A stretch of 64,000 nt of DNA from an uncultured Nitrososphaeraceae archaeon (GCA_963779615.1 CAVZZA010000003.1:1139781-1203780); one strand, 5' to 3'. Shown: positions 43,361 to 58,845, counted from the stretch's first letter. The notes: a model not told the origin generated them from the sequence alone. Program-made: numbers and translations.

Positions 43361-44355
43361 ATAATCTTAAAAAGTAATCATCAATTTCAATTTTGTTTTT
43401 AAATTAGTTTACTTTTACTTTTACTTGTAATTTTATAATAACATAGAGTAACCCATTTTCAGGTAAAGGTTTGAGATTAACATATCTAGTGCAATTCAAA
43501 TCCATGCATGGTTTGAATATAAAAAAGAGAATCACAATAATCACTTTCAAGATGGTTTTGAAAATATGCATGGATTAAAAATCATTGCGTTGAAATTGAG
43601 TTGGTATGAAGATCAGTACCGCTTTGTGTATTCTACGAATGTATCAGGAGCTTTATATCGTTATTATGCTAACTTTATTTTGCTAAGAAAAAACCCAAAA
43701 CTGTGTCTTTGCTAAACAGCGGCAAGAAACATGTAGGGTAACTGCTAATGTACTCTGGTTTATTTACCGAAAAAAGATGGAAGAAGAAATTTTTCTATCT
43801 TTTTTCCGGTTATTCTTTTCAATGGCAACAATTATCGATTTGTAGTAGTAACATTTACGTTAATTCCCATACAGTGAAACTTGGTTTGTTCTGATATTTT
43901 GCAAAGCCAATGCATGAAATATATGTACTTAACACATACCAATTTACCATCATTTGTGGGTTTGCATTGGGCACTATTGCCGACGATCCACTAATTTGTA
44001 AGATGATTGAAAGAGGAGAAAGACCAGAAAAATTGATAAAAGTAGCCGATAGTATTTCAGATTTATGGTCGAAATAGGACCAATTTCTTCCTCTTAATAA
44101 CCCAAAATCATCCACATCTCATGAAAAAAATAAGTTATTGTCTGTAGTGATACTCTCTGGAGATAACTAAGCAATAGTATTACATACAAAAGACATAACC
44201 TTGGTGTGACAATATGCATACCAAATCATCCGAATAACAAACAACAAGTTAAAAATATAAGGATATTTGTTATGATATATTTATGAAAATAAGTAATCTT
44301 ATTGAGAAAAATTATTTCATTATGATGAATTGACTACTACACCAAAAAAATGAAA

Positions 44356-44901
44356 TCATAGATCTTCCATCAGGGAAATATAATTGTCAACACTTCTGTC
44401 TAACAGGGTAATGTCAGTTTTCTCAATTAGTTTTTCTACTTCTAATGGGTTTTTGAGGGAGTATTCTGAAACTTCAATTCCTCTTTTTCTGATTATTACC
44501 TCCGAGTCCAATAGCCTTTTTAAGTTCCAGGATGTGGTTGATGGGGCTCTATTGATATGAGAGACTAGCTCATTAAATGTGCAGGATTTTCTTTCAATTA
44601 GTTTTAGAATTATTTCTTTTGTTGTTCTTATCTTTAAATACCCTAAAATTATTGTTTCTTCTGAGGGAGTAGATGCAGGATAATAGCGAGTAATGTTGCT
44701 GTTTTCTGTTCGTATAACTTTGATAGTCGAACGTTTTTCCAAAGTGGCAAGATGGTGCGATAATGTTCCATTATTTAAATTGGTTATTCGCAATAATTCC
44801 CTATATCTTATTCCAGGCGAAAGATTAATAATTTTCAATAAAAAACTCTTTTTATTTTCTTTTTCTAATTTGCCCAAATCCAATATTTCTTTGTGACTCA
44901 T
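44356..44901 (-). CDS. Double winged-HTH transcriptional regulator
   Basis: PGIRYRELLRITNLNNGTLSHHLATLE and TFNELVSHINRAPSTTSWNLKRL; overlaps the upstream gene by ATGA. Confidence 0.85.
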   Translation of the reverse strand: MSHKEILDLGKLEKENKKSFLLKIINLSPGIRYRELLRITNLNNGTLSHHLATLEKRSTIKVIRTENSNITRYYPASTPSEETIILGYLKIRTTKEIILKLIERKSCTFNELVSHINRAPSTTSWNLKRLLDSEVIIRKRGIEVSEYSLKNPLEVEKLIEKTDITLLDRSVDNYISLMEDL

Positions 44902-45308
44902 TTTCTCTCAACCCTAATTACTCCAGCAGCAAACAAAGATACCATAAGGAGCAACAATATATGTGGTAGCTCGACCTCAATATAAGGTATATGATAATCT
45001 CCAAGAATATCGCTTGCTTGTAGCAAATATAGAAATTCTACAATCAACAGTATGCTAAAGCTTAATGAAGTTAGCAAAACTCTTTTGCTTTTTGTCTTTT
45101 TAAATGAAAGGATGGAGATAACGGTTAGAAACAAGGCAATGTCAAAACTTATGAGGTGAATAGCAATATGATAGATCATTCCAGGATGGAACAAATGGGG
45201 AACTAGCACGGGATAAACAATAATAGAAGTGAAGGAAATTGACAGTACTAAGAAAAGGTTGGTTTTGTTATTTAAAAAATCTTGAATGTGTCCTAAAATA
45301 GCCACCAT
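44898..45308 (-). CDS. His/Met-rich 4-TM membrane protein (candidate metal sensor)
   Basis: Four hydrophobic segments; PHLFHPGMIYHIAIH loop, YH and ELPH; paralog at 56077. Confidence 0.75.
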   Translation of the reverse strand: MVAILGHIQDFLNNKTNLFLVLSISFTSIIVYPVLVPHLFHPGMIYHIAIHLISFDIALFLTVISILSFKKTKSKRVLLTSLSFSILLIVEFLYLLQASDILGDYHIPYIEVELPHILLLLMVSLFAAGVIRVERK

Positions 45309-45600
45309 TATTCTTACTGTTCTTTATCATCCCTTTTTAGCAATGACTATAATAATTGAAAAAGTTACATAAAAGGCAATTGGTACAATAACAAAATAAA
45401 GAATCAGAATGCGTACACAAACAGATTAGCTAAATTAATAAAAATCAAAATAATTAGAGTGCAATAACTGCATATTTGCAAAGGCATTGTTGACAAAAAT
45501 TTAAATTTTAATATCATATGATCTAACAATAAAAAAAATATGATGATAGTGATTGCATATGTTTTCTACATATTGCTACTGCTTTGTTGTCGCAATCCCA

Positions 45601-46263
45601 TTATTTGTTTAAAGTCGAGTTTTCAGATGTGTTTGACACACCTAACCTAGATTGTATGTCCACATTTGGTAAATATGGTTCAGGAAATCCCAATCGTGGT
45701 TCAGGGCAACCAAATCCTCCTACCAAAGCTTTTCTTACAACATCCTGTGAGATTTGGACTGTGGAATTGTCAGATTTTGTTGCCTCTCCACCAGCCGGAT
45801 TGCAAGCAAATGTTTGATCAAAGCTTGTTCCGTTAATATCACCAAAAATCCTGTAACTGTATGTAGTTGCAATGGTTGGATAGAATGTTTTAGATTCGTA
45901 TGATCCAAGTTCTCCAAAGGCAGGCTCCAAATCAGAGGTCATGTTTTTATCCCCGGCGGATATTTCCACTTTCAAGGAGTTTTCCAGCCCCGTTATTGGC
46001 TGCGTTCCATTGGCTTGGGAATTGGTCGGGTCGGTGGCGTTTGGCCAAATACCCCTAAAATCAACACCCGTTTTATCATCAACAGATGCCGGTTCATTTA
46101 GCGAGCCTATCACAAACAAGTAGTCTTTACCATTTATTGTATACAATGCCTTTTGATGTGCAAGAGCAATCTGGCTATTAAGAGATAATAGCAGTATTGC
46201 AGCTGCAGCAATTGTGCCAAACATTAATAGATTCTGTCTTCTACGATTATTTTTAATTCGCAT
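45601..46263 (-). CDS. Secreted protein with predicted mature N-terminal His (paralog A)
   Basis: RRR-containing signal ending ALA|HQ; NEP, LEPAFGELGSY, YPT, two Cys. Confidence 0.8.
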   Translation of the reverse strand: MRIKNNRRRQNLLMFGTIAAAAILLLSLNSQIALAHQKALYTINGKDYLFVIGSLNEPASVDDKTGVDFRGIWPNATDPTNSQANGTQPITGLENSLKVEISAGDKNMTSDLEPAFGELGSYESKTFYPTIATTYSYRIFGDINGTSFDQTFACNPAGGEATKSDNSTVQISQDVVRKALVGGFGCPEPRLGFPEPYLPNVDIQSRLGVSNTSENSTLNK

Positions 46264-46316
46264 AAATTGTGTATTACCTTCATTATTGAAATAAATAATT
46301 TTTTTTATAATTTTTT

Positions 46317-46339
46317 TGGTGTATTCGTAGAATAAAACA
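46317..46339 (-). promoter_or_regulatory. Semi-palindromic operator upstream of the paralog A TATA box
   Basis: TGTTTTATTC-TAC-GAATACACCA, then 7 nt, then TATAAAA. Confidence 0.65.
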
Positions 46340-46877
46340 AGAGGCTATTTATTAAGATAATTTTCAAATAATTTTATAAACATGGCAAATCAGAAAAATT
46401 AAAAAAATCCATTATTGCGGATAACGCTTTATCCTGTTAATAATCCAGAGGTCCCATTTCACCAAATATCTTGATTGTTTGGTATAACATTCTACAAAAA
46501 GTTTTACCCATTGGTAACTGCATTAGTTAGAATTTCTTTTTCTATTTGGAAAATAGTGTGTGATTATTTACCCCAATCCTTCACAGATTTACATGAGTCC
46601 AAAGAGATGGATTACCCACAATAAGTCGATTTGAAACTAAATATAACAATCATCATAATTACCCTTGTTGAGATCCCATTCCTCTGTTCCTTTCAAATAT
46701 CTCCATCGTGCTTTCGGCTGTGGTTTACTTTTTTAATGGATAGACATTTCCATAGATAACCAGGCAGATATAACATAGTTGTAATTTAAAATTATTTTAA
46801 AAAATATTTCTTAAACTATTCAAATAATTAATCATGGTTGAACTAAAAACAATAGATCAAAATAATGAATCCAAAAT

Positions 46878-46900
46878 TACATTGTTCGATGTTTAAACAA
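46878..46900 (+). promoter_or_regulatory. Weaker operator copy upstream of the paralog B TATA box
   Basis: TACATTGTTC-GAT-GTTTAAACAA, then 7 nt, then TAAATAT. Confidence 0.4.
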
Positions 46901-46937
46901 CATTGGTTAAATATTTAAGCAAACAATATACATAACA

Positions 46938-47570
46938 ATGTCATATAAAACACATCTAAGATTTGCAACTTCTTTTTTCCTTATATCCGCGTTTATTACT
47001 GCACCTCTTATTCAAACATCTTTTGCTCATCAAATATCATTATACACAATAAAAGACAAAAACCATTTATTTGAAGTGGAATGGGCTAACGAACCGGTAG
47101 CTGTAGATGATAAAACAAATGTTCAATTTACAGCTCTCTTTCCAAACGCTACGGACCCGACCAACCCTGAAGCTGATGGAACGCAGCCAATAACGGGGCT
47201 GGAAAACTCCTTGAAAGTGGAAATATCCGCCGGGGATAAAAACATGACCTCTGATTTGGAGCCTGCCTTTGGAGAACTTGGATCATACGAATCTAAAACA
47301 TTCTATCCGACCATTGCAACTACATACAGTTTTAGGATTTTTGGTGATATTAACGGAACAAGCTTTGATCAAACATTTGCTTGCAATCCAATTCTTGGTG
47401 AAAATTCACCACCTGACAATTCCACAGTCCAAATCTCACAGGATGTTGTAAGAAAAGCTTTGATTGGCGGTTTGGAGTGTCCTGAAGATAGGACAGGCTT
47501 TCCTGAACCATATGTACCCCAAAATGATTTAGCTCAAGCATTAAACAATGCAACAACACCTAAACAATAA
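46938..47570 (+). CDS. Secreted protein with predicted mature N-terminal His (paralog B)
   Basis: Signal ending SFA|HQ; NEP; core nearly identical to paralog A. Confidence 0.8.
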   Translation: MSYKTHLRFATSFFLISAFITAPLIQTSFAHQISLYTIKDKNHLFEVEWANEPVAVDDKTNVQFTALFPNATDPTNPEADGTQPITGLENSLKVEISAGDKNMTSDLEPAFGELGSYESKTFYPTIATTYSFRIFGDINGTSFDQTFACNPILGENSPPDNSTVQISQDVVRKALIGGLECPEDRTGFPEPYVPQNDLAQALNNATTPKQ

Positions 47571-47719
47571 AATCAATTTTTTTTAAATCGAATAGTTTTA
47601 TAATGAATGATTTTGTTCATGTATATAACTTTCAATTTATTTTATCCTTTAAGAAATTTCAATTCATCTTGTTATCTAGTGAAAGATATTGATTTTTGTT
47701 GAGCATGTATGGTTATGTA

Positions 47720-47742
47720 TTGTTAATTCGGGATTTGTACAA
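47720..47742 (+). promoter_or_regulatory. Operator upstream of the copC TATA box
   Basis: TTGTTAATTC-GGG-ATTTGTACAA, then 7 nt, then TATTAAT. Confidence 0.6.
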
Positions 47743-47777
47743 TAATGATTATTAATATTATCATATAACAATGGAGT

Positions 47778-48546
47778 GTGAGAATTTTTAAACCTCTTTT
47801 TTTTCTAATTTTTTATACTATAGGGATAAGTATATTTATTTTGCCTGTGTATGGACATGCTAATCCCACTGTCTTAAATCCAAAACCAAACCAAACATTT
47901 GACATTAACGGTCAAGCAGTGCCTGATAAAATATCGATTACTTTTTCAGAAAGGCCCGAAATAAAAGCCAGCAATATCAAGGTAACTGACTCAAAAAATA
48001 CAAGAGTGGATAACAACGATTTAAAGACTTTGAGCAGTGATGACAGAACACTTTCAGTTTCTTTGGGTAAATCAAAAATAATACCCGGAATATATACGGT
48101 AAACTGGATAGTCTTGTCAAAGGATGATGGACACATTACAAAAGGGATCCTATGTTTTCTCAATAACTGAAAATAACAAACAAAGTGATAATCAAGCAAC
48201 AAACAACAAATGCACTGCCAAAATATTCGAAAAATCTTACAACTGAAAACATAATTTATGAAGTTCGGTATTTCTCCCGTTTCAAGCGGGACAAAACACG
48301 TTTAATTTAACAGCTTTATACAACAATGGCACTTCTGTTAAAAATATCAATAATGTGTATTTAGAGTTTAACAATCCAACTAAAAATATTGGTCCAATTG
48401 TTGATGTAATGAACAAAACGTCACCAGGAAACTATTCATCCACTGGTAACTTTTTAAGCCAAACTGGAGATTGGGAGATTAAGATAATTGTGCAGAGAAC
48501 AGGAGAATACGACATTAACCAAAAACTCGATATAAACATAAAATAA
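47778..48546 (+). CDS. copC: CopC copper-binding protein with a C-terminal YtkA/FixH-like domain, frameshifted
   Basis: VYG|HANP His1, ITFSE, GIYTVNWIVLSKDDGHITKG; distal fragment GNYSSTGNFLSQTGDWEIKIIVQR. Confidence 0.85.
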
Positions 48547-48604
48547 TTCTCCATTTTATTCATTATTTTAATAATTCGAAAGAACACAATATAAACAATA
48601 GACC

Positions 48605-50054
48605 ATGATAAATACCAATTAAGCTTTTAGGTGTTATTTTATTAATAACTTCAATAATCAATGGCATACTTCAAATCCCAAATACGGCATTTGCTCAACA
48701 GGAATTTAACAATTCAGGAACAACTGAATCAGTGACTTCCAATTATGACGCAATAATTAAATCCATTTTAATTATATCGCAGGTGTCAATTTTGGGAATA
48801 ACATTCAATCATGTCATTTTTCAAAAAATTATGAGAAGGAAAAATAATCAGATGGTGATGGAGGAAAGGATTATAACATAACGCAATAATCAATTATTGA
48901 AAAGATTTACTGTCATTTTAGCACTTTGCTGCATAACCATAATAATTGCTTCTACAGGCATAATGTTAATTCAATCCTATGAGCTTTCACAAAATCTGTC
49001 CCAAGATCTGTTTTCTGCGTTCTCCATATTGTATACAACATCAGTGGGTCAGGTTTGGACGATAAGAATCATTACCTCTTTAATGATAACAGCATTGGTT
49101 TTTTCCCATTATATTGATTAAAAGGAACGCAATAAAGAAAAAGATTAAGGGCAATTCAACCCAACAGCATGGAGACAAAATTTCCAATACTATTGCCATA
49201 TTACTTCTCATTAGGGATTATTGTCGTTTCTTCGATAAATCTATTTTCCAACAGCATGTTAAGTCATAGCAATAGTTTGTCACCTTTAGCGGTATCAGTT
49301 GATTGGATTCATTTTATGTCAGTATCCATTTGGATTGGAGGTTTATTCTACCTGTCATCCATTTTTTTAAAAAGCATAAAATTATCCTATAAATGAATCT
49401 GCCAAAAGTATAGATGATGATGAAAGCGACATTAAAAATAGTATATTAAACACTCATCAAATTTCTTTTATCGTTAATGTGTTTTTCATTTATTGCCATT
49501 TCATCACTTTGCATAATCGGAACAACCGGATTGTATATGAGCTTGATCCATTTACAAAGATTAGATGCAATATTTACTACTTTATATGGTCAAATACTAA
49601 TCATAAAACTCAGTTTAGCTTTCACAGTGATTTTTCTGGGCAGGCACAATCAGCTTAAAATACAAAAGTATGCCGCAATCACATCAAAAGTCATAATAGG
49701 AAGCAGCATCAATAATGACGATCAAAAAGCCTTTTCAGGTCACAACAAAAAAATAGTCTGTTTTCTTTAATTCAATGACATAGATCCCTAAAAATAGAAT
49801 CACTAATGGGAATTTCCGTTCTTATTGTAGCATCTTTTCTTTCAGTAACCTCCCCACCTTCCCTGGAAACATCAAATCCAGATTCTAATCTCAACAACAA
49901 TACTAATTTAACAAATAATGCAAAAAAGGAATAAATGTAGACTTTACTATAATGGTAATAATTTTGTCAATCATTATAATAATTTTTGGCATTGATTAAC
50001 TTTAGAAAAAACAGGCAACAAATAAAGGAAATATTTCCACCCTTTTCCAGGTGA
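48605..50054 (+). CDS. copD: CopD-family copper transport membrane protein, heavily fragmented
   Basis: Fragments TSVGQVWTIR / SH...DWIHFMSVSIWIGGL / GTTGLY...TLYGQILIIK / KIES; many frameshifts, so errors or a pseudogene. Confidence 0.75.
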
Positions 50055-50290
50055 CTATTTTTTAGCAAACAGGCCCATTATAATCACAATGAGGCAAGAT
50101 TGCTGAATTTGATTATAATTGGATTAATTAATAATGTTGTTAAAGTTTTTTTCACATCGTTTTTCCTTCCATGTTTAAAGAAGTTAATTTAACATGATTG
50201 CAAAATAAATAAAAAAATTAAAATTATTTGTCTCAGCAAGAAAGTTATAATCATTGGATTTTGTACAAATATTCAGGAAAAAAAAGAAGA

Positions 50291-51765
50291 CTAAAGGACA
50301 GGAATGACAGCTAATTTTACATTACTGCCATCTATCCATGAGATCGCCATTATCCTATCTGAACCCGTGGTATATGGATAATGCTTTGTTATATCACCTG
50401 ATACAAAGTTACCATTTTTAATCAAATGTCCATTCTTATCCACAACAGCTAAATGTATTGTACCATCTCCAACAAAGCTGAAATCTTCTTCATAGGTAGA
50501 GCTTTTCTTCAATCCTTCAGAGTTTACAAAAACAATCCATGAATTACCATATTTATCTGTTTTAAGGTATTGGGTTGTAGGCGGAATCCATTGTTCTGAA
50601 AGCAGGTGAATGGGCAGAGGTTTGTTAAATGTTAATCCTTTGTCACCAGAAGTCGTATAATAGAATCCAGGGCCATTTGGAGCAAACTCACTTCCCGTAA
50701 ACCAAGCAATATGAAGGGTTCCATCCTTATCAAAATCCATGCCAGGTCCGGAATCAGGGCATCCATTCATGAACCATTTATCGTTTCCCACACGAGAAGG
50801 AGTGGAGAAATTTTCAGCTTTTCCATTATCAGTGGAATGGTAAACTGTAATGTCCCTAATTACGGTTTGATTCTGACCATCTTCCAGCAAAAACGGAGTT
50901 TTGGTGCTATTATCATTCAAATCAAGAGATTTGTTTTGAAAAGCAGATCTGGAGGTAACGTATAGCTCATCATCAGGACCAAATTTTATGACCGTAGCAC
51001 AACATTGGCATGCTGAATGATCAGCAATGGAACTGTTAGAGAAAGTCTTGCCTCCATCTTGGGAGCTTACAACTCTAACTACAGTGGGATGTACCAGACA
51101 CATCTTTTTCCAGGTCATAATCAAGATTAAGGTAGGATATGTAAACTTTGTCATCGGGTGTTACTGCTATGTAGGGATATGATTGTTCCCCCTTTGGGTC
51201 ATTTGGTGCAGGGTTTATTGCAGGTTGGAATGTAGATCCCCCATCTAGTGATCGAGCATATTGCAAGGTTACCTGGCCATATGGGTACTTTACCGGATCG
51301 CTGTGGTCGGCTTTGTACCATACTACATGTATGTCATTTTTAGGCCCTATCCCCAAGGCAGGGGCACTCCATTGTTCATCTATGGCAATAGAATCTTTGA
51401 CATCGTTAACTCTGACAGGATTAGAATACGTTTTACCAAAATCAATGGATTTTTGTAGATACAAATTCCCACCACTGCTTTCGTTTTTGAAGTAGATAAC
51501 ATAAATTGCATTTGTTTTAGGATCAATACCTACTGCAGGCGTAGTTGCGTTTTTAAAAGTGTTGAATATTGTATTGTTCAAGCTTTTATCAATGATTGAC
51601 TTCATACTAGTATTATTATTACTGGTAATGTCATTTGATAACGAAACAGTAGAGTTTGAAGCAAAAGATAGGTGTTGTTGCTGCTGATTGAATTTGACTC
51701 ATACTGCCGATAAAAAAAAACACGATAGCAAGAATTCCTAAAATTTTGTATTTACCAGTAAACAT
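50291..51765 (-). CDS. Secreted BNR/Asp-box (sialidase-like) beta-propeller with CxCC and GCP motifs, two frameshifts
   Basis: Asp boxes SIDFGKTY, SLDGGSTF, SQDGGKTF, STDNG, SGDKGLTF; ADHSACQCC and WFMNGCPDSGP; signal peptide from ATG 51765. Confidence 0.82.
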
Positions 51766-51804
51766 TGTTTATGGTAATAGTTATTTTAGCATTTATAGCA
51801 TTTC

Positions 51805-51827
51805 TTGTACAATTATAGAATCCAACC
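51805..51827 (-). promoter_or_regulatory. Operator upstream of the propeller gene TATA box
   Basis: GGTTGGATTC-TAT-AATTGTACAA, then 7 nt, then TATAAAT, ATG about 26 nt further. Confidence 0.6.
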
Positions 51828-51844
51828 ATTTGACAGATTAAAAA

Positions 51845-52627
51845 TTAAATCGGAATCAGCGGCTGTGTATTGTTAGGTATATAGCTTGTTATTAGAGCAA
51901 GCTGACCCGTCAAAAGTATGACTCCGATAACTATCAATATGGCTCCGCTTATTCTGTTGATCCATGGCATCCACTTTCTGATTCGCTGGAAAAAAGAGAT
52001 GAATCTTTCTATTACCAATGCAGAGACAAAAAAAGGTATTGCCAAACCCAGTGCATAGAATGATAAAAGCTGAATACCGGTCCAAATAGAAGTGCTTGTC
52101 GCTGCAATTGTCAATATTCCTGCAAGAATTGGACCAATACAAGGAGTCCAACCAGCTCCAAAACTCATTCCAACTACAAAGGAACCTACCTGGCTTGTCG
52201 GTTTATTTTTCATTTTAAAACCTAATTGCCTTTCTAAAATTGGTATTGTAAACAAGCCAGTTAGGTGGATTCCAAAGGTTATTAAAAGTGCCCCCCCTAT
52301 TCTGGCTATCCATATGCTATAGTCGTAAAACACACTCCCAATTGTTGTAGTGGAGATTCCAAGAAGAATAAACACCACGGAAAATCCTAATATAAACATT
52401 GTTGTTCTTAACAAAAGCTTGCTCCTGATTTTTTTTCTATTTTCTCGCTCCTGCTGAATTTGTCTTTTCTCCCCTACCGGGTTGTTTCGGTTAAAAGAGG
52501 AAAAATCTCCCAAACTTGTTCCAGTTACAAAAGCTAGAAAACTTGGAATTAGAGGCAATACACACGGTGATAAAAAACTCAACAAACCCCCAATAAAGGC
52601 AAGAGGGAATCCAATATTGTATGTCAA
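51845..52627 (-). CDS. ccdA: CcdA/DsbD-type transmembrane electron transporter
   Basis: SFLSPCVLPLIP and WTPCIGPIL. Confidence 0.93.
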   Translation of the reverse strand: MTYNIGFPLAFIGGLLSFLSPCVLPLIPSFLAFVTGTSLGDFSSFNRNNPVGEKRQIQQERENRKKIRSKLLLRTTMFILGFSVVFILLGISTTTIGSVFYDYSIWIARIGGALLITFGIHLTGLFTIPILERQLGFKMKNKPTSQVGSFVVGMSFGAGWTPCIGPILAGILTIAATSTSIWTGIQLLSFYALGLAIPFFVSALVIERFISFFQRIRKWMPWINRISGAILIVIGVILLTGQLALITSYIPNNTQPLIPI

Positions 52628-53271
52628 AGATGCTTGAGGTGACGAATTGATAGTTGTTGTTTCTGTTGGCTTACCATCCGCAACAGAAGAAGAATTGCCA
52701 TTTTGTAGATTGGGCTATCGAATTTATATGAGCACTGATTGCAGGAGATTGCGCTGGTAATAAAATTCTCAATATTGACAGTATTCCCTTCTATAGGACC
52801 TCTCCACCTATAAACAACCTGGCCATCTTTGTCTATTAAAAAGGATTCGGGAACTCCTATGGTTTTAAACGCCCTGGCAAAATTGTTGTTTGGGTCAAAT
52901 AAAATTGGATATGTCATATTTAGTTTATTTGTAAAGGAAGTTATCATGGATTCTGATCCTCTCCTGTCTATGGAAACACCTACTACGTCTACACCATATT
53001 TGTTGAGGTCCTGATATATTTTCTCCAATATTGGAATTTCTTCTCTACATGGTTGGCACCATGTGGCCCATAAATTCAACAATGTCAGATTATTCTTTTT
53101 GTAAATTGATTCAAGGGAAACAATTTTTTTTGTTTCTAAATCAATGCTTGAATATTTTGGAGCTAAAGGAAAACCATCAGTTTTTTGAGAAAAGGCATCA
53201 TTTTGATAGCAGATGGTCAATACTATTACCAATAAAGACATTATACAAACGCTTTTGAAGATATTTACCAT
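52624..53271 (-). CDS. TlpA/ResA-like exported thioredoxin
   Basis: NLWATWCQPCREEIP, GVPESFLIDKDG; N-terminal anchor; C-terminus may be frameshifted. Confidence 0.9.
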   Translation of the reverse strand: MVNIFKSVCIMSLLVIVLTICYQNDAFSQKTDGFPLAPKYSSIDLETKKIVSLESIYKKNNLTLLNLWATWCQPCREEIPILEKIYQDLNKYGVDVVGVSIDRRGSESMITSFTNKLNMTYPILFDPNNNFARAFKTIGVPESFLIDKDGQVVYRWRGPIEGNTVNIENFITSAISCNQCSYKFDSPIYKMAILLLLRMVSQQKQQLSIRHLKHL

Positions 53272-53315
53272 AAAAATATTATAATTTTATTTGGCTTTAG
53301 TAAATATTAACTTTA

Positions 53316-53338
53316 TAGTTCATTCAACGAATTTACAA
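53316..53338 (-). promoter_or_regulatory. Operator upstream of tlpA-ccdA
   Basis: TTGTAAATTC-GTT-GAATGAACTA followed 6-7 nt later by a TAATATT box. Confidence 0.65.
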
Positions 53339-54082
53339 TTTCAAGACTAGCATGGTGCATAAATATGCCATATTGATAGATTTGTTTCGGATTAAATAGC
53401 CAAAAAGATGTTGGGTATTATCCATTTGTAAAAAGGGAATGGCGGTAGTTGTTGTTTATATAACCAAAGCCACATTTTGATGAATTGCATCTGAAAGAGG
53501 TACCACCATTAACTGTGGATATGACTTCAGGTGATATGGAAAACGATATTTCCACAATCATTTCCCTGGCCACCTTATCACGGCTGACAAACGTCTTTGA
53601 CGTATTCCTTTGGGTTATTGTTTGGCTAATCCCGATAGCAACTTTTACCTTTTGGATATATTATAGTCTCTTCACTTTTGGGCAAGGTATTCAAAAGGTA
53701 TTTACATTTTTATAAATCATAAACCATATAATGGTTTGAGAAACCGACATCAACTCTTTTACATTCTTAATTTTATGCATATCGCTCATTTTACAAGGGT
53801 TATCTTTTTTAAACCATTCGGCCAGTGCCGTAATATTTGATACAGAGGAACTTTCTGTAAAAATGGATATTTTATTCCTTATGTTTTGTTTAACCTTGTT
53901 TTACCTCTTGTGACAGCCATCATCTCCAATGCTAATGTTGTTACATAGAATATGCACTATCACCTTATCCTTCCCATTATTCATTTACATATTTCCTATA
54001 TCTGGATTGTAAAAAATAGATAAAATTTTGACATAAGTGTAACCATACACCAACCCATCTATGCATTGAATAGGTCGTTATC

Positions 54083-54720
54083 TCATTGCTTTGTAGTAGT
54101 GAAAGAGTCTTTCGTGAATCCATGCATTAGCGAATTAACATTCCCGTGAATTGGCTGCCCATTAAAGTGTTGTTCTACTTGTTCATTATTTACATTAAGA
54201 TTGATTGTATTGTATTTGTTAATATCCAAACTCGAAGTTACATTGCCCCATTTAATTTTACCATGTTCCATAACATCTATTAATCCAGTTATTTTTGTTG
54301 AGCCACTTGAAGGTAATTGTAAATTAGTTTCGTTTGACCTAAAATTTACAAAACTCATATCATGACGGTTTGTACCATCAAAATGAACCATCGTAATTTT
54401 TGTATTAAAGTCTGTAATGTTCCCACCAATTACTTCCAAATTCCAATGTCCCCCTAGCGTGTAACTTGTTTGATTATTTGCTGGAAATGTGATGTTGTTT
54501 TCTGGGGATGTTGATTGATTGCATGCCTTTTATTACTAACGAATTTATCATACCGCTGGCAGAGAATGTATTAATACCACCTATATTATTGGTATTTTCT
54601 GATTCAAGACCAGATGCCGGCAAGGATTGTGCATTTACCTCAAAAGCAGTAGATGGATAATGGCAGAAGTAATAACAAGAAGGTCCCTAATGTTAGGGAT
54701 ATTTTACCTGAAAATTTCAT
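54083..54720 (-). CDS. Secreted hypothetical protein, frameshifted
   Basis: Signal peptide from ATG 54720; FSASGMINSL; YTLGGHWNLEV...MVHFDGTNRHDM. Confidence 0.6.
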
Positions 54721-54755
54721 ATATACAATGTGATAATATTGCCATATAACTTTTG

Positions 54756-54778
54756 TAGTACAAACATAGTTACACTAC
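54756..54778 (-). promoter_or_regulatory. Operator-like site upstream of the 54720 gene TATA box
   Basis: GTAGTGTAAC-TAT-GTTTGTACTA, then 7 nt, then TATATGG. Confidence 0.45.
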
Positions 54779-55649
54779 AGTACCATAATCCAATAAAAAA
54801 GAATTGTAATTGTTCACAAACTCATATCATTGAAAGAGAATTCAACCAATTACAAAACTCATTTAGTATATTATTTGACTACGTATTTGCCGAAAATATC
54901 ATACTGAGTAATTAAGTCTAATGTGTCCTAACTGTATCATCCATTAAAATTAATAATTCAAGAAAAAAATTTATGAGATAATCCCAGATTAAAAATCACA
55001 AAGATAACAGAGCTGAAAAAAATTGTATATCATATCATAATTAAAACATACACAAAACAACATCAAGAGCAAATTCTAAGTCCCTACATAGAAAGCATAA
55101 CATTTCCAAAGATAGACATTACAACACAGTAATTTTTTTATCAATTTTTATACATATCTGTAAATACTGCATTTCCAAAACTACCTCTTTACCTTATTCA
55201 GCCCAATCTTCAAATTAATTAATGTCCCAAAAGTCAGAATACACGATTAAAATGATCACTAAGAAGAAAAAAATTATTGTTTTTTAAGCTATCTGTCTTT
55301 TTTAGTCGGTTTTTAAAAGAGTACTCAATTATTTTAATCACTTAAAATACCCTATTTAGGATTGAAAGCACATAAATAATAATTACTTGATAGGAATAAA
55401 TCAATAGTACCCTTTCTGTAATTAGGTTGTTAAATAATCATTGAGGGAGAAAGATGGCGCCCTTTTTAATAGAGTACATTAGCAAGATGCATCATCTATA
55501 ATCATCCTTCAATGACAGTATTTTCGTCAGAATATGACCATTTGCAGGCTGGTTGTTCTTTATGCCTCACTACCCTATTGCTGGGCAAGCACTTTTGCAT
55601 TGTATTGCAAGCCGCAAATACTTTTACAATATTTTAAATAAAAAGGTTT

Positions 55650-55674
55650 TTGGTTCATTCTTAGAATGAACCAA
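55650..55674. promoter_or_regulatory. Perfect palindromic copy of the operator, with no intact adjacent gene
   Basis: TTGGTTCATTCT-T-AGAATGAACCAA; 20/25 identical to 46316-46340. Confidence 0.6.
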
Positions 55675-56076
55675 TTGAAGTTATTTTAGTTTGACATTAT
55701 TTATTATTAATGATTGATTAAGATTAAAATAATGACTCATATATTGTGCAATTGGATTTAATTTGGCAGACAATTCAAATTACTGATCCATAAAATTGGT
55801 AATGCATAAAGGTTTTTTGACCATGGCATTTATGAAAGTGGTAGGACTTATGAGGATCAGTTGAATCAGGGTACAAAAACTATAAAGAGTTAGGCAGATG
55901 ACGTAGTTAGTGGTTATGTAAATGGTAATGATGGGTTTATCAACTTCTATTGTTTAAATAGTTTTTATGATGCCTTGCCCGACATGTTTGTTTGTGAATT
56001 TTATACTGTCAATGTTTTAATTGTGTTTTTATTTTAGGAATGTACCAATCGCTTTTTAAGTTACTTTTCCGATGAA

Positions 56077-56514
56077 ATGTTATTGCTTAAAAAGGACAGC
56101 AATATCAGCTATTATGAGTACTTTCAGGTTTTCCTCAGCAATAAAACTAATCTCTTTTTGGTGTTATCCTTAGTATTCATATCCATTATTGCTTATCCGT
56201 TAATTTTACCTCACATGAATCATCCATCAATGATTTACCATATTGGAGTTCACATAGTCAGTTTTGATGTGGCATTATTTTTAACTTTTATTTCAGTTTT
56301 ATCGTTTAAAAAGACCAAAAGCAAAAAGGTTTTACTTACATCGTTAAGTTTTGGCATACTATTAGTTGTAGAATTTTTATATCTGTTGCAATCAAGTGAC
56401 GTTCTAGGAGAATATCATTTACCATATATTGGAATAGAAGTACCGCACATTCTGTTATTGTTTATGCTCGTTTTCTTTGCTGCCGGAGTAATAAAGGTCG
56501 AAAAAAGATCATAA
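56077..56514 (+). CDS. His/Met-rich 4-TM membrane protein, paralog of 44898-45308
   Basis: NKTNLFLVLS, PHMNHPSMIYHIGVH, FKKTKSK, EVPHILLL shared with the first copy. Confidence 0.8.
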   Translation: MLLLKKDSNISYYEYFQVFLSNKTNLFLVLSLVFISIIAYPLILPHMNHPSMIYHIGVHIVSFDVALFLTFISVLSFKKTKSKKVLLTSLSFGILLVVEFLYLLQSSDVLGEYHLPYIGIEVPHILLLFMLVFFAAGVIKVEKRS

Positions 56515-57070: not shown

Positions 57071-57741
57071 GGCGCTGTTAACTTAAGCATTTACCACTTC
57101 CTTGTTATGCATATTTACAAATAGTTTCAACCAATTCTTTACATTATAGAGATTACATCTTTTCTTTCCACATGGAAAGTAATCGTCAAATCCTTCGATT
57201 CTATCCTTAATATATTGCACAGTTCTCTCTATGAGACCCTTCTCATATGGGAAATGAATGTGGTGCTCCAGTTTTAGGGATTTACATGCTTGCGGATACC
57301 ATGTAGATCTGTTGATACTGATTGTTTGCCATATTCTTCAACTATGTCAAGCATAAAACGTTCTGCTACGAAAATATTTCTCGCCTTGGATATTTTTGTG
57401 CGAAGAATTGCTTGGGTTTTAGGCTCAATAGCAATCCACAGCCAAAAGAATTCAGAACATATCTTGATTTGTGTTTCATCAATGATAAACTGTGATACCA
57501 TCTTTCTATTTGACGACATCTTTTGAGGCTTGCACTTTTGAATCCAGTTCCAGACTAGAACGTGGCTTCTCTTAACAATATGCAAAAATGATAATGCTTT
57601 GGCAACATTTCTAAATGATAAACCAAGAAAGTACAAATACAAACCATGACCAATATGCTCTGAAGGTGTTCTGTTTCTTTTACTACACACATGAGAGATA
57701 AAGCATCTTCAAGTTATATCATTTTCTTAAGTTAAAGAACC
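57071..57741 (-). mobile_element. IS6-family insertion sequence; transposase 57083-57690 with a frameshift near 57305
   Basis: LYFLGLSFR, SHVLVWNWIQK, IDETQIK, WLWIAIEP, VSTD, TWYPQAC, IERTVQYIKDR; terminal IRs GGCGCTGTTAACTTAAG and GGTTCT-TTAACTTAAG. Confidence 0.9.
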
Positions 57742-57990
57742 TCAAAGCACTATCTTTTTTTATAAGGATTGCCAAGAGAAGCAATAATACCGCGAAAAAG
57801 AATGGATAAAGAAGGCGAGATTCACAACATACGTAATCTGCATACGTCTTTTGATTATCATCATCTCTTTATCCTTGCCAATATCCAGTGTTTTAGCAAA
57901 AGACTTTCATTTATTTGCCATATTTTATATCGGGATTGTCCTTCAACTTTGAACAAAATAGTTAAAAACAGGGAAAAGAATTCTCTGTTA

Positions 57991-58845
57991 ATGAAACAAT
58001 TAACCATAACATTATTTCTGATTTTTATCCTACCTTTTTCTTACTTAATAGACTCCCACTCATCACATGCTCAAAAGTTAACAGCAACGTCAGTAATGAC
58101 CTTGGCCAGCGTTAGTAGTAATAGCACGGGCGTAAGTACTCACACAATAGAAAATAAGACGGTTAACTACTATGGCAACACCACAGGATATCTAGCATAT
58201 CCATCCCTAAATCAAAGTAATCAGGTAGAAAAACTTCCAGCAGTGGTGATGATTCACGAGAACAAAGGATTGAATGATTTTATCAAAGACTCAGCAAATA
58301 TTCTTGCTAAAAGCGGGTATGTTGTTCTGGCCGTTGATCTATTTAACGGGGAAATATCAACCGACCAGGATCGCTCAAGGGAATTAACATCCACGATAAG
58401 AGAAAACCCCAACATTGCCATAGAAAACATGAAATCTGCTGTAAGTTATCTTGGCTCTCTTGATAACGTTAACGCCTCTAGAATCGCATCTTTAGGATGG
58501 TGTTTTGGTGGCGGCCAGTCACTACAACTTGCACTCAATAGCAATGACCACCCTCTTTCTGCTACAATAATTTACTATGGAGTTCCATTAACAAATGACA
58601 CTAAGGCGCTTTCCAACATAAAATGGCCAGTATTAGGGATATTTGGCGATAAAGACATGGCAATACCTGTTGATACGGTAAAACAATTTCAACAAGCGTT
58701 AACTGAGCTTGGCATACAAAATGAAATTTATATTTACCCTGGTGTTGGGCATGCATTTGCAAATCCATCTAATCCTAACCATGCTCCAAATGAGACCGCC
58801 GACTCATGGAAAAAGACACTAAATTTCCTAAACAAATATGTTTAA
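57991..58845 (+). CDS. Exported dienelactone hydrolase-family protein
   Basis: AVVMIHE, GWCFGG, FGDKD, GHAF; signal peptide from ATG 57991. Confidence 0.9.
   Translation: MKQLTITLFLIFILPFSYLIDSHSSHAQKLTATSVMTLASVSSNSTGVSTHTIENKTVNYYGNTTGYLAYPSLNQSNQVEKLPAVVMIHENKGLNDFIKDSANILAKSGYVVLAVDLFNGEISTDQDRSRELTSTIRENPNIAIENMKSAVSYLGSLDNVNASRIASLGWCFGGGQSLQLALNSNDHPLSATIIYYGVPLTNDTKALSNIKWPVLGIFGDKDMAIPVDTVKQFQQALTELGIQNEIYIYPGVGHAFANPSNPNHAPNETADSWKKTLNFLNKYV

Follow-up and report, generated by a model that had tools for sequence, protein, structure and literature searches.

A directional promoter element with fixed spacing to the TATA box upstream of copper-related genes in an uncultured Nitrososphaeraceae archaeon

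The stretch of DNA analysed here (the window) comprises 64,000 nt of the genome of an uncultured Nitrososphaeraceae archaeon (G000:C3:1139781-1203780; 3.17 Mb, 36% G+C, five contigs), and the subject is a short promoter element that recurs upstream of its copper-related genes; site positions are given in window coordinates. On the minus strand lie the gene for a 181-aa protein in which Pfam finds two winged-helix domains (44356..44901), the candidate regulator, and the gene for a 136-aa membrane protein (44898..45308), which is co-transcribed with the regulator gene and whose stop overlaps the start of the latter. These are followed by unk220 (45601..46263, minus strand), which encodes an exported protein of 220 aa that has no assigned function and no family match in Pfam or NCBIfam. 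The plus strand then carries a gene for a 210-aa exported paralog of unk220, also without a family (46938-47570), and the gene for CopC (47778-48170), with CopD fragments extending up to about 49900. Back on the minus strand are a BNR/sialidase-like propeller gene with a broken frame (50291 to about 51766), the Pfam-assigned genes for DsbD (51845-52627) and a TlpA-like redoxin (52624-53271), which together occupy 51845..53271, and a gene with a broken frame for an exported protein, called the 54083 protein (54083 to about 54720). A paralog of the 136-aa membrane protein, recognized by alignment, is encoded on the plus strand at 56077-56514.

The preliminary description of this DNA listed seven 23-nt sites in this region as a shared regulatory element of copper genes, and all seven are present with the coordinates and strands given there. 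Read toward the nearest gene, each of the seven 23-mers is followed by 7 nt and then by an A/T-rich box. The sites were scored with an independent 30-nt composite model (16-nt core, 7-nt gap and TATA box) learned from other genomes only, with a cut at 14 bits; its source was 87 relatives' sites with up to two mismatches, of which 67 were left after sequences at least 80% alike had been dropped, and 51 of these, with at most one mismatch, entered the model. The part of the model covering the gap and TATA box, likewise learned from relatives, was also scored alone at offsets of -4 to +5. Five of the listed sites are above the cut by a clear composite score. The site before unk220 (46317..46339, minus strand, of a palindromic subclass described below) scores 17.2, with the gap and TATA box at 46303-46316 and a TATA part of 8.1 at offset 0, and orthologous sites occupy the same position in three relatives' loci (L099, L102 and L103). 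The site before the 210-aa paralog (46878..46900, plus strand) scores 11.9 for the core and 18.9 for the composite and has positional orthologs in three further loci (L047, L100 and L101). The sites before CopC/CopD (47720..47742, plus strand) and before the BNR/sialidase-like propeller (51805..51827, minus strand) reach 24.0 and 25.2, and the perfect palindrome at 55651..55673 scores 21.4 toward the minus strand (gap and TATA box at 55637-55650) and 2.1 toward the plus strand.

The other two listed sites stand apart. The site before TlpA/DsbD (53316..53338, minus strand, palindromic class) scores 8.6 for the core and 11.1 for the composite, under the cut, with a TATA part of 2.6; better sites are found upstream of fused TlpA-DsbD orthologs in three other genomes (G015, G041 and G045). 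The site before the 54083 protein (54756..54778, minus strand), in which AAC replaces TTC, is borderline, with a core of 7.3, a composite of 15.1 and a TATA part of 7.8. Three sites can be added to the original seven. Two weaker half-sites had been suspected in the preliminary description, and their fates differ: the one placed at 45380-45402 is, in the register 45381..45403 (minus strand), a full site before the membrane-protein/regulator operon that scores 21.7 and is among the best conserved (gap and TATA box at 45367-45380, TATA part 7.8 at offset 0), but the one at 57935 was rejected, with a score of 7.2 and a location inside an open reading frame (ORF) at 57769-58845. The second addition, absent from the earlier list, precedes the membrane-protein paralog gene at 56077-56514 (56025..56047, plus strand, composite 18.3). 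The third, also absent from that list, is the palindromic-class site TTGTGTATTC-TAC-GAATGTATCA (43624..43646, plus strand), with a core of 11.9, a composite of 12.7 and a weak TATA part at offset 0; it scores 16.4-16.7 bits with a matrix made from the seven listed sites, the plus-strand unit downstream of it contains no conserved ORF, and it is possibly a true site.

The element itself proves to be an asymmetric, directional 16-mer, TTCGA-N3-TTGTAC(A/C)A. The preliminary description had presented it as a 10-3-10 semi-palindrome, and as a general architecture this does not stand. In the relatives' sites the information is concentrated in positions 8-12 (TTCGA) and 16-23 (TTGTAC-A/C-A) of the 23-mer, with only 0.01-0.28 bits at each of the left-arm positions 1-7. 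Two positions of the supposed spacer are themselves conserved (0.65-0.8 bits): 37 of the 67 sites have G at position 11, and 57 have A at position 12. Furthermore, the outer seven positions of the two arms match one another no better within a site than between sites (2.08 versus 2.04 matches; permutation p = 0.36, n = 51 non-redundant sites). A dyad centred on the 8-bp palindrome TTGTACAA was also considered and rejected, as no TCGAA mirror follows the core. The semi-palindromic description does hold for a dyad-symmetric subclass, ATTC-N3-GAAT (GAAT at positions 14-17), which accounts for 7 of the 51 relatives' sites and in the window for those at 46317, 53316, 55651 and 43624. Sites of this subclass average 3.7 of 7 outer matches, versus 1.8 in the remaining sites; in the window, 8 of 10 positions are complementary at 46317 and 7 of 10 at 53316, and the palindrome at 55651 is perfect. 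Such sites can be understood as a pair of asymmetric units, one on each strand, that overlap.

For the spacing to the TATA box, the preliminary description had claimed about 7 nt. In the 67 relatives' sites, positions +7 to +12 after the 23-mer read T-T-W-T-A-A, with the consensus base present in 40-50 of the 67 at five of the six positions; the W position is divided between A (29) and T (31), and the three positions preceding this box are enriched in G+C. When the gap and TATA part is scored alone, its maximum falls at offset 0, that is, at a gap of 7 nt, in 9 of 11 site orientations, including all seven listed sites. Compared with 1.89 million random intergenic positions, seven orientations come within the top 0.04-0.5%, which sets them apart from the AT-rich background, and 53316 ranks at 2.5%. 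The exceptions are 56025, which scores better at offset -2, and the plus orientation of 55651, which has no box. The claimed spacing is thereby borne out, and it is conserved across species. The gap is as long as the transcription factor B recognition element (BRE), and the TTGTAC end of the core faces the TATA box, so that the element stands at a fixed distance directly upstream of BRE/TATA, as is expected of an upstream activating site. In most CopC and unk220 promoters of relatives the core begins 50-56 nt before the ATG. Because only about 27-33 nt remain between the start of the TATA box and the start codon, the transcripts would be leaderless or nearly so. A contig of one soil RNA library (run X2) stops at about 46265-46271, within a few bases of the unk220 start codon on its upstream side, and continues as adapter-like letters, which faintly hints at a transcript end near that codon.

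Several lines of evidence indicate that most of these sites are more than chance products of AT-rich promoters. A scan of both strands of the whole genome with the independent model gives 18 matches of at least 14 bits, of which 8 fall in the window between 45367 and 56061, where 0.06 would be expected from an even spread (P about 7e-16). Intergenic matches were compared with 30 third-order Markov simulations: at least 16 bits is reached by 10 matches versus 1.5 +/- 1.3 in the simulations (maximum 5), at least 18 bits by 8 versus 0.6, and at least 20 bits by 5 versus 0.17. No excess of model matches over simulation was found in coding sequence, and the core by itself shows hardly any enrichment at cuts of 10-14 bits. 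The site at 53316 (11.1 against the cut of 14) does not share in this support, and 54756 shares in it marginally. The matrix derived from the seven listed sites is circular and provides weak evidence. In leave-one-out scoring, 46878 falls to 2.7 bits and 54756 to -0.6; the matrix gives no intergenic enrichment over the simulations at 12-14 bits, and although it yields 9 intergenic matches of at least 18 bits (0.7 +/- 1.0 simulated), five of these are training sites.

Motif discovery in relatives also turned out in favour of the element. De novo expectation maximisation (EM) on relatives' upstream regions, started without any matrix, finds the motif again in four gene families, namely the membrane protein, CopC, unk220 and the BNR paralogs. 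The core, counted as TTC-N5-TTG-N-AC-N-A with at most one mismatch, directed toward the gene and within 200 nt, is present in 14 of 16 promoters of the membrane protein (shuffle mean 0.5), 22 of 31 of CopC (0.98), 26 of 31 of unk220 (1.08) and 16 of 25 of BNR genes (0.64), so that 14-26 promoters stand against 0.5-1.1 in shuffles. Core matches on the opposite strand at CopC and unk220 stem from the divergent arrangement of these genes. For TlpA the count is 1 of 9 (shuffle mean 0.26), and EM on these nine upstream regions found no site; the starts are mis-set, since the orthologs are longer, fused proteins. Homologs of the 54083 protein have the core in 3 of 29 promoters (shuffle mean 0.7) and give the site at 54756 no support; EM on the 29 upstream regions likewise found no site, the homologs being distant and coding sequence having been picked up. 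A phylogenetic footprint adds to this. The 220 nt upstream of the membrane-protein/regulator operon in 17 loci cannot be aligned save for the start-codon region and one block, TTT-N3-NTTGTACCAAT-N4-TTTTTAA, which is the sole conserved upstream block.

The site is associated with the membrane-protein/regulator operon not only in the genus and the rest of the family but also in three further families of the order. The operon is present in 22 of 24 genomes of the genus. At the level of the family, 80 of 91 genomes and 17 of 18 genera have the membrane protein; this last tally includes two unpublished genomes (G116 and G078), on neither of which any other claim rests. Among 20 loci of other genera (with L206 of G116 left out), 17 have a site of at least 14.7 before the operon, and two of the remaining three have a degenerate copy at the same place. 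Across the order, occurrences of the exact pattern TTCGANNNTTGTACMA were compared with those of its reversed sequence as a control. The pattern gives 23 matches versus 2 in 9 genomes of this genus, 13 versus 6 in 35 genomes of other genera of the family, 30 versus 4 in 44 genomes of family f13, 7 versus 0 in 10 genomes of family f9, and 1 versus 3 in 33 genomes of family f10. In loci of f13 (G202 and G178), f15 (G038) and f9 (G032), the pattern precedes homologs of the membrane-protein/regulator operon, CopC/D and unk220: in both f13 genomes a site stands before the membrane-protein/regulator operon, and in the f15 genome a site is flanked by the regulator gene on one side and the unk220-CopC genes on the other and is directed toward the unk220-CopC genes.

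The sites of the window, copies of one cis-regulatory element conserved in ammonia-oxidising archaea, are instances of a motif that was already published, and the present analysis therefore confirms it with added detail. Reyes et al. (2020, ISME J, PMC7785015) applied MEME to the upstream regions of genes of Nitrososphaera viennensis that are induced by copper limitation and obtained TTCSGSMTTTGWACYANT, reported 12 times and 35-70 nt before start codons. The motif lies there upstream of CopC/D, of exported proteins adjacent to CopC/D, of the sialidase-like/DsbD operon and of NVIE_014290, which is co-transcribed with the ArsR-type regulator NVIE_014280. The promoter strings in its Dataset S1 have the same core as the window sites, and several have the 7-nt gap as well; the NVIE_1444 site, TGGTTCATTC-GTA-GAATAAACCA, is nearly the perfect palindrome found at 55651. 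Some genes were scored there as having the 'motif twice' or 'on the opposite strand', entries that are explained if the palindromes are overlapping units. The log2 changes under copper limitation were +2.47 for NVIE_014280, +2.72 for NVIE_014290, +2.80 for NVIE_1457 and +2.68/+2.20 for CopC (PMC7785015), so that orthologs of the motif-bearing genes do rise when copper is limiting, in keeping with the earlier claim of a regulatory element shared by copper genes. Their regulation was left as an open question in that paper, whose supplement raises NVIE_014280 as a possible repressor, for the down-regulated genes. In the accessible supplements 'palindromic' describes only the other, down-regulated motif, and in the main text as accessible neither 'palindrom' nor 'TATA', 'inverted repeat' or 'Nitrosocosmicus' occurs, and no genus besides Nitrososphaera is named for the motif. 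A literature search with the consensus string matched Reyes et al. 2020 only; the accessible text of a 2026 N. viennensis transcriptome paper mentions neither the motif nor ArsR, and a search on copper regulators, binding sites and promoters of ammonia-oxidising archaea, over such text as was accessible, brought up no further relevant paper.

The agreement with N. viennensis extends to the core, the distance to the start codon and the gene set (CopC/D, exported protein, sialidase-like/DsbD, hypothetical/ArsR operon). By our reading the site at 47720 matches 16 of 18 positions of the published consensus (two mismatches); the other window sites fit the core TTC-N5-TTG-N-AC-N-A and differ at the S positions of the consensus. 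The window 23-mers end 28-54 nt upstream of start codons, in accordance with the published distance. The organism studied here belongs to another, AT-rich genus, perhaps Nitrosocosmicus, whose loci in relatives have 27-37% G+C, and in contrast to N. viennensis its spacer is A/T-rich. A genome scan with the printed consensus at up to two mismatches returns 13 matches, one of them the window site at 47720; as a scanner it was rejected, being too GC-bound here, and three of the matches, as we read them, resemble tRNA T-arms. One locus (L229 of G118) carries the printed promoter strings of Reyes et al. letter for letter, and behind them lie homologs of the regulator (41% identity), the membrane protein (41%), unk220 (55%) and CopC. 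On the strength of this locus, sequence comparison identifies the window regulator as the ortholog of NVIE_014280, the membrane protein as that of NVIE_014290 and unk220 as that of NVIE_1457. What is added here is the fixed 7-nt gap, the asymmetry of the element and its spread over family and order.

The protein encoded at 44356..44901, which the preliminary description had put forward as the binder, is the best candidate for that role, and its own operon carries a site in every lineage examined. In its 181 residues Pfam finds an HVO_0163_N helix-turn-helix (HTH) domain (residues 22-80) and an HTH_5/ArsR domain (residues 97-136); the latter scores 40.1 bits against a cut-off of 22, which places it in the ArsR/SmtB winged-helix fold. 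The NCBIfam metalloregulator family NF033788 gives 36.1 bits, below its cut-off of 55, so that the protein falls short of the curated family. An AlphaFold2 model from 18 sequences (pLDDT 80) consists of two winged helices followed by a disordered tail. With the whole chain, Foldseek retrieves tandem winged-helix proteins (YceH-like, SarS, SelB, ESCRT-II) at TM-scores of 0.23-0.41, and with one domain the ArsR/SmtB repressors CzrA, CadC, BigR and SmtB, with target-normalized TM-scores of 0.63-0.71 for CzrA, CadC and SmtB. The invariant columns of the regulator alignment (A1) include no Cys and one His (H50, in the first recognition helix), so that the sequence points to no particular metal-binding site. 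The partner membrane protein has no Pfam or NCBIfam family match. It has four predicted helices (model pLDDT 71), and in its alignment (A2) P37, H38, H41, P42, M44, H47, H51, E91, Q97, E113 and H116 are invariant. The PHxxHPxMxxHIxxH cluster is invariant throughout this four-helix family, which is represented in the window at 44898-45308 and 56077-56514 and always goes with the regulator; the sequence makes the family a candidate copper sensor or carrier. A predicted complex of regulator and membrane protein scored 0.01 (mark 0.32), a value that counts neither for nor against binding. Elsewhere in the genome, at 621 kb on contig C1, a paralogous tandem winged-helix regulator is encoded (L180:13002-13562).

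The reading that we favour, with rather better than even confidence, is that the element is an upstream activating site read under copper limitation by the autoregulated tandem winged-helix protein of 44356. The copper-acquisition regulon of the window would then consist of CopC/D, the two exported proteins, the BNR propeller, probably TlpA-DsbD, the membrane-protein/regulator operon, the membrane-protein paralog and a small structured RNA-like unit. One domain of the 181-aa protein would contact TTCGA and the second TTGTAC; the two half-elements have their centres about 10 bp, or roughly one helical turn, apart. When copper is scarce, the bound protein, positioned beside the BRE, would help TFB and TBP onto the promoter by contact and would thereby raise its own synthesis; the signal may come via the His/Met-rich membrane partner. 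Contact, rather than steric blocking, is suggested because the exact spacing is kept in promoters that are otherwise unalignable. A palindromic site would comprise two such units that lie on opposite strands and overlap. The preliminary description had proposed activation by a dimeric regulator; the fixed position directly upstream of BRE/TATA does fit an activator, but the symmetric operator expected for a homodimer is not what is found, and because the regulator is one chain with two different winged-helix domains, a monomer could read two unlike half-elements.

A number of points weigh against this proposal. The regulator contains no conserved Cys/His cluster able to sense copper, as judged from alignment A1, and the relative placement of its two domains in the model is uncertain because the full-length Foldseek TM-scores are low. 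The paralogous tandem winged-helix regulator or other winged-helix (wHTH) genes could be the true binder, and the palindromic subclass may belong to a second factor. A site that abuts the BRE could equally block TFB, and induction under limitation also fits a copper-loaded repressor. Finally, the sites at 53316 and 54756 are weak.

Negative control through the same element and regulator is the alternative that deserves most attention, although we consider it somewhat unlikely. A regulator loaded with copper, or controlled by its membrane partner, would hinder TFB/TBP and leave when copper is scarce, so that induction under limitation would be de-repression. The single-domain structural neighbours are ArsR/SmtB repressors, the Pfam and NCBIfam matches are to an ArsR-type HTH, operons that include their own repressor are common, and the supplement of PMC7785015 itself raises NVIE_014280 as a possible repressor, if for down-regulated genes. 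Against such a mechanism, the site never overlaps the TATA box or the start, an exact 7-nt distance is needed for protein-protein contact and not for steric blocking, and the regulator, to judge from alignment A1, shows no conserved metal ligands. The reader of the element might also be a different protein, namely the paralogous two-domain protein at C1:621 kb, another wHTH protein or a specialised TFB paralog for which the element would be an extended promoter element. That paralog, of the same two-domain composition, does sit in a second metal island that also has sites, but only the 44356-type regulator travels with the site over genus, family and order, and the conserved core, at 8-15 nt upstream of the TATA box, is too far away for the usual BRE contact as set by BRE length; a different reader is, in our judgement, improbable.

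Binding of a symmetric homodimer to a 10-3-10 inverted repeat also appears improbable. What it would account for is the palindromic subclass: the perfect palindrome at 55651, the partial ones at 46317 and 53316, the printed and nearly perfect NVIE_1444 site, and the excess of outer matches in GAAT sites over the rest. For the sites as a whole it fails on the lack of any dyad excess among the 51 non-redundant sites, on the nearly empty left-arm positions 1-7, on the fixed orientation to the TATA box and on the conserved G-A at positions 11-12 of what would be the spacer. That all of the sites are chance resemblances among AT-rich promoters is hardly credible. Such a view could cite the lack of enrichment with the seven-site matrix at 12-14 bits, the two sites that fail its leave-one-out scoring and the bare enrichment of the core alone, but it is refuted for the set as a whole by the agreement of the independent model, de novo discovery, clustering, cross-species footprints and the published motif. 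Taken singly, 53316, 54756 and 43624 may possibly be such resemblances.

The proposed activating site shares its placement directly upstream of the BRE, with strict spacing, with other archaeal upstream activating sites. Ptr2 of Methanocaldococcus and TFB-RF1 of Pyrococcus act from upstream activating sites next to BRE/TATA. Unlike in Ptr2-type systems, the candidate protein here is a tandem winged helix and not Lrp-like, and activation is in this case a prediction from sequence. With the ArsR/SmtB metalloregulators the candidate shares its second domain, which matches HTH_5 and superposes on CzrA, CadC, BigR and SmtB; it differs from them in having two winged helices in one chain, an NF033788 score under the cut-off and, as far as alignment A1 shows, no conserved metal ligands. 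Furthermore, classic ArsR/SmtB proteins are released by metal excess, whereas the genes in question, to judge from the N. viennensis orthologs, rise on metal lack. SarS acts as an intramolecular dimer. It has two winged-helix domains per polypeptide, as does the candidate, and is second in the Foldseek list (PDB 1p4x), but the TM-scores are 0.33/0.25, the identity is 14%, and SarS is bacterial. The likeness to eukaryotic copper-response elements, which consists in induction by copper lack and a GTAC core (here within TTGTACAA), is an analogy only. The SBP-domain factors CRR1 and SPL7 read GTAC-core copper-response elements; their proteins and promoter machinery are unrelated to those discussed here. 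The CopT/CopR proteins of Sulfolobus are also archaeal copper-linked transcription factors (PMC7785015), but they answer copper excess and control export genes of the copA type. Pfam reports no TRASH-type domain in the 44356 protein.

The effect of these results is to turn a MEME motif known from one species into a defined promoter architecture (core, direction, 7-nt gap and TATA box) that is conserved over an order. They also provide a small set of target genes, one best candidate for the regulator and a candidate for a membrane sensor, and they supply a sequence signature by which copper-acquisition genes can be predicted in ammonia oxidisers that have not been cultured.

The perfect palindrome at 55651 is followed, toward the minus strand, by the 7-nt gap, the TATA box and then about 190 nt with no frame-conserved ORF. 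This stretch holds a structured and apparently non-coding unit (55428..55621, minus strand), which the palindrome would drive and which has a small 5' hairpin and a long terminal hairpin at 55436-55516 (ATTGAAGGA...GATGAT...ATCATC...TCCTTCAAT) with TAATGTACT in its loop. A second copy of the unit, with 81% identity over 650 nt, is found at C1:630113-630761 and a degenerate third one at C3:6641-6812, and five close relatives have one to six copies each. Every aligned copy except the degenerate third starts with the palindromic site, and all copies fold into the same hairpin. RNAalifold on the hairpin gives 16 pairs, 4 with a double change, and a covariation term of +0.31, which is slightly unfavourable; an RNA structure is therefore suggested rather than shown, because covariation is thin and sequence conservation dominates. 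A covariance model of the hairpin (R1) finds 17 matches, 5 of them outside the training set, in 6 of 34 genus genomes at 1-6 copies each, and Rfam has nothing at E <= 0.1 in the window between 43000 and 58500. By its sequence the unit is a candidate small RNA of the regulon. Two further palindromic sites, at 43624-43900 (plus strand) and C1:632523-632567, share the promoter part only (87% over 45 nt), and each of these two sites is followed by an ORF-less stretch that ends in a strong hairpin and a T-run.

If these units are indeed small RNAs, they could mediate copper-sparing down-regulation of other genes, in the manner of RyhB for iron or of miR398 for copper in plants. A broader idea, which we regard as unlikely but worth stating, is an order-wide copper-scarcity switch of ammonia-oxidising archaea in which a single-chain tandem winged-helix activator would read the asymmetric two-part element beside the BRE, the co-translated four-helix membrane protein would supply the signal as the copper sensor, and the regulon would take in, in one subclade, a multi-copy family of small structured RNAs behind palindromic sites that could act in copper-sparing down-regulation.

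The expression material consisted of contigs from two soil RNA libraries, each with 6-7% of the sequence words and with no information on strand, start or level. At a likeness of at least 92%, these contigs cover coding parts of the genes for the regulator, the membrane protein, both exported proteins, CopC/D, the propeller, DsbD and the 54083 protein; between 54708 and 56575 there is no coverage, a gap that argues neither for nor against expression of the non-coding unit. The frames of CopD (48170-49900), the BNR propeller (51075-51766) and the 54083 protein (54440-54720) are broken, as is that at 52700-52760. Because RNA contigs from close strains have 1-4-nt insertions or deletions at or near the breaks (48555, 49386, 51609/51611, 52708, 52755/6, 54523, 54598 and 54603), sequence comparison suggests that the broken frames are assembly errors and not pseudogenes. 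TlpA and DsbD, which are two overlapping ORFs in the window, form a single fused frame of 487-544 aa in eight relatives' loci (L112-L119), and in five of these eight the fusion lies directly behind the BNR gene, like the sialidase-DsbD operon of N. viennensis. The cluster is bordered by a fragment at 57274-57690 (minus strand) with a weak match to a DDE transposase of the IS240 type.

Outside the window, the best genome match of the composite model (26.0) lies upstream of a gene for a 585-aa exported propeller at C1:611960, and further matches occur before an exported protein at C1:654.7 kb and at C5:149243, C1:630158 and C1:632521. The region C1:608-660 kb (L180, L001 and L181) resembles a second metal island: besides several sites, the best of the genome among them, it contains two CbtA genes and genes for a GSDH-plastocyanin fusion, a multicopper oxidase and the tandem winged-helix paralog of the regulator.

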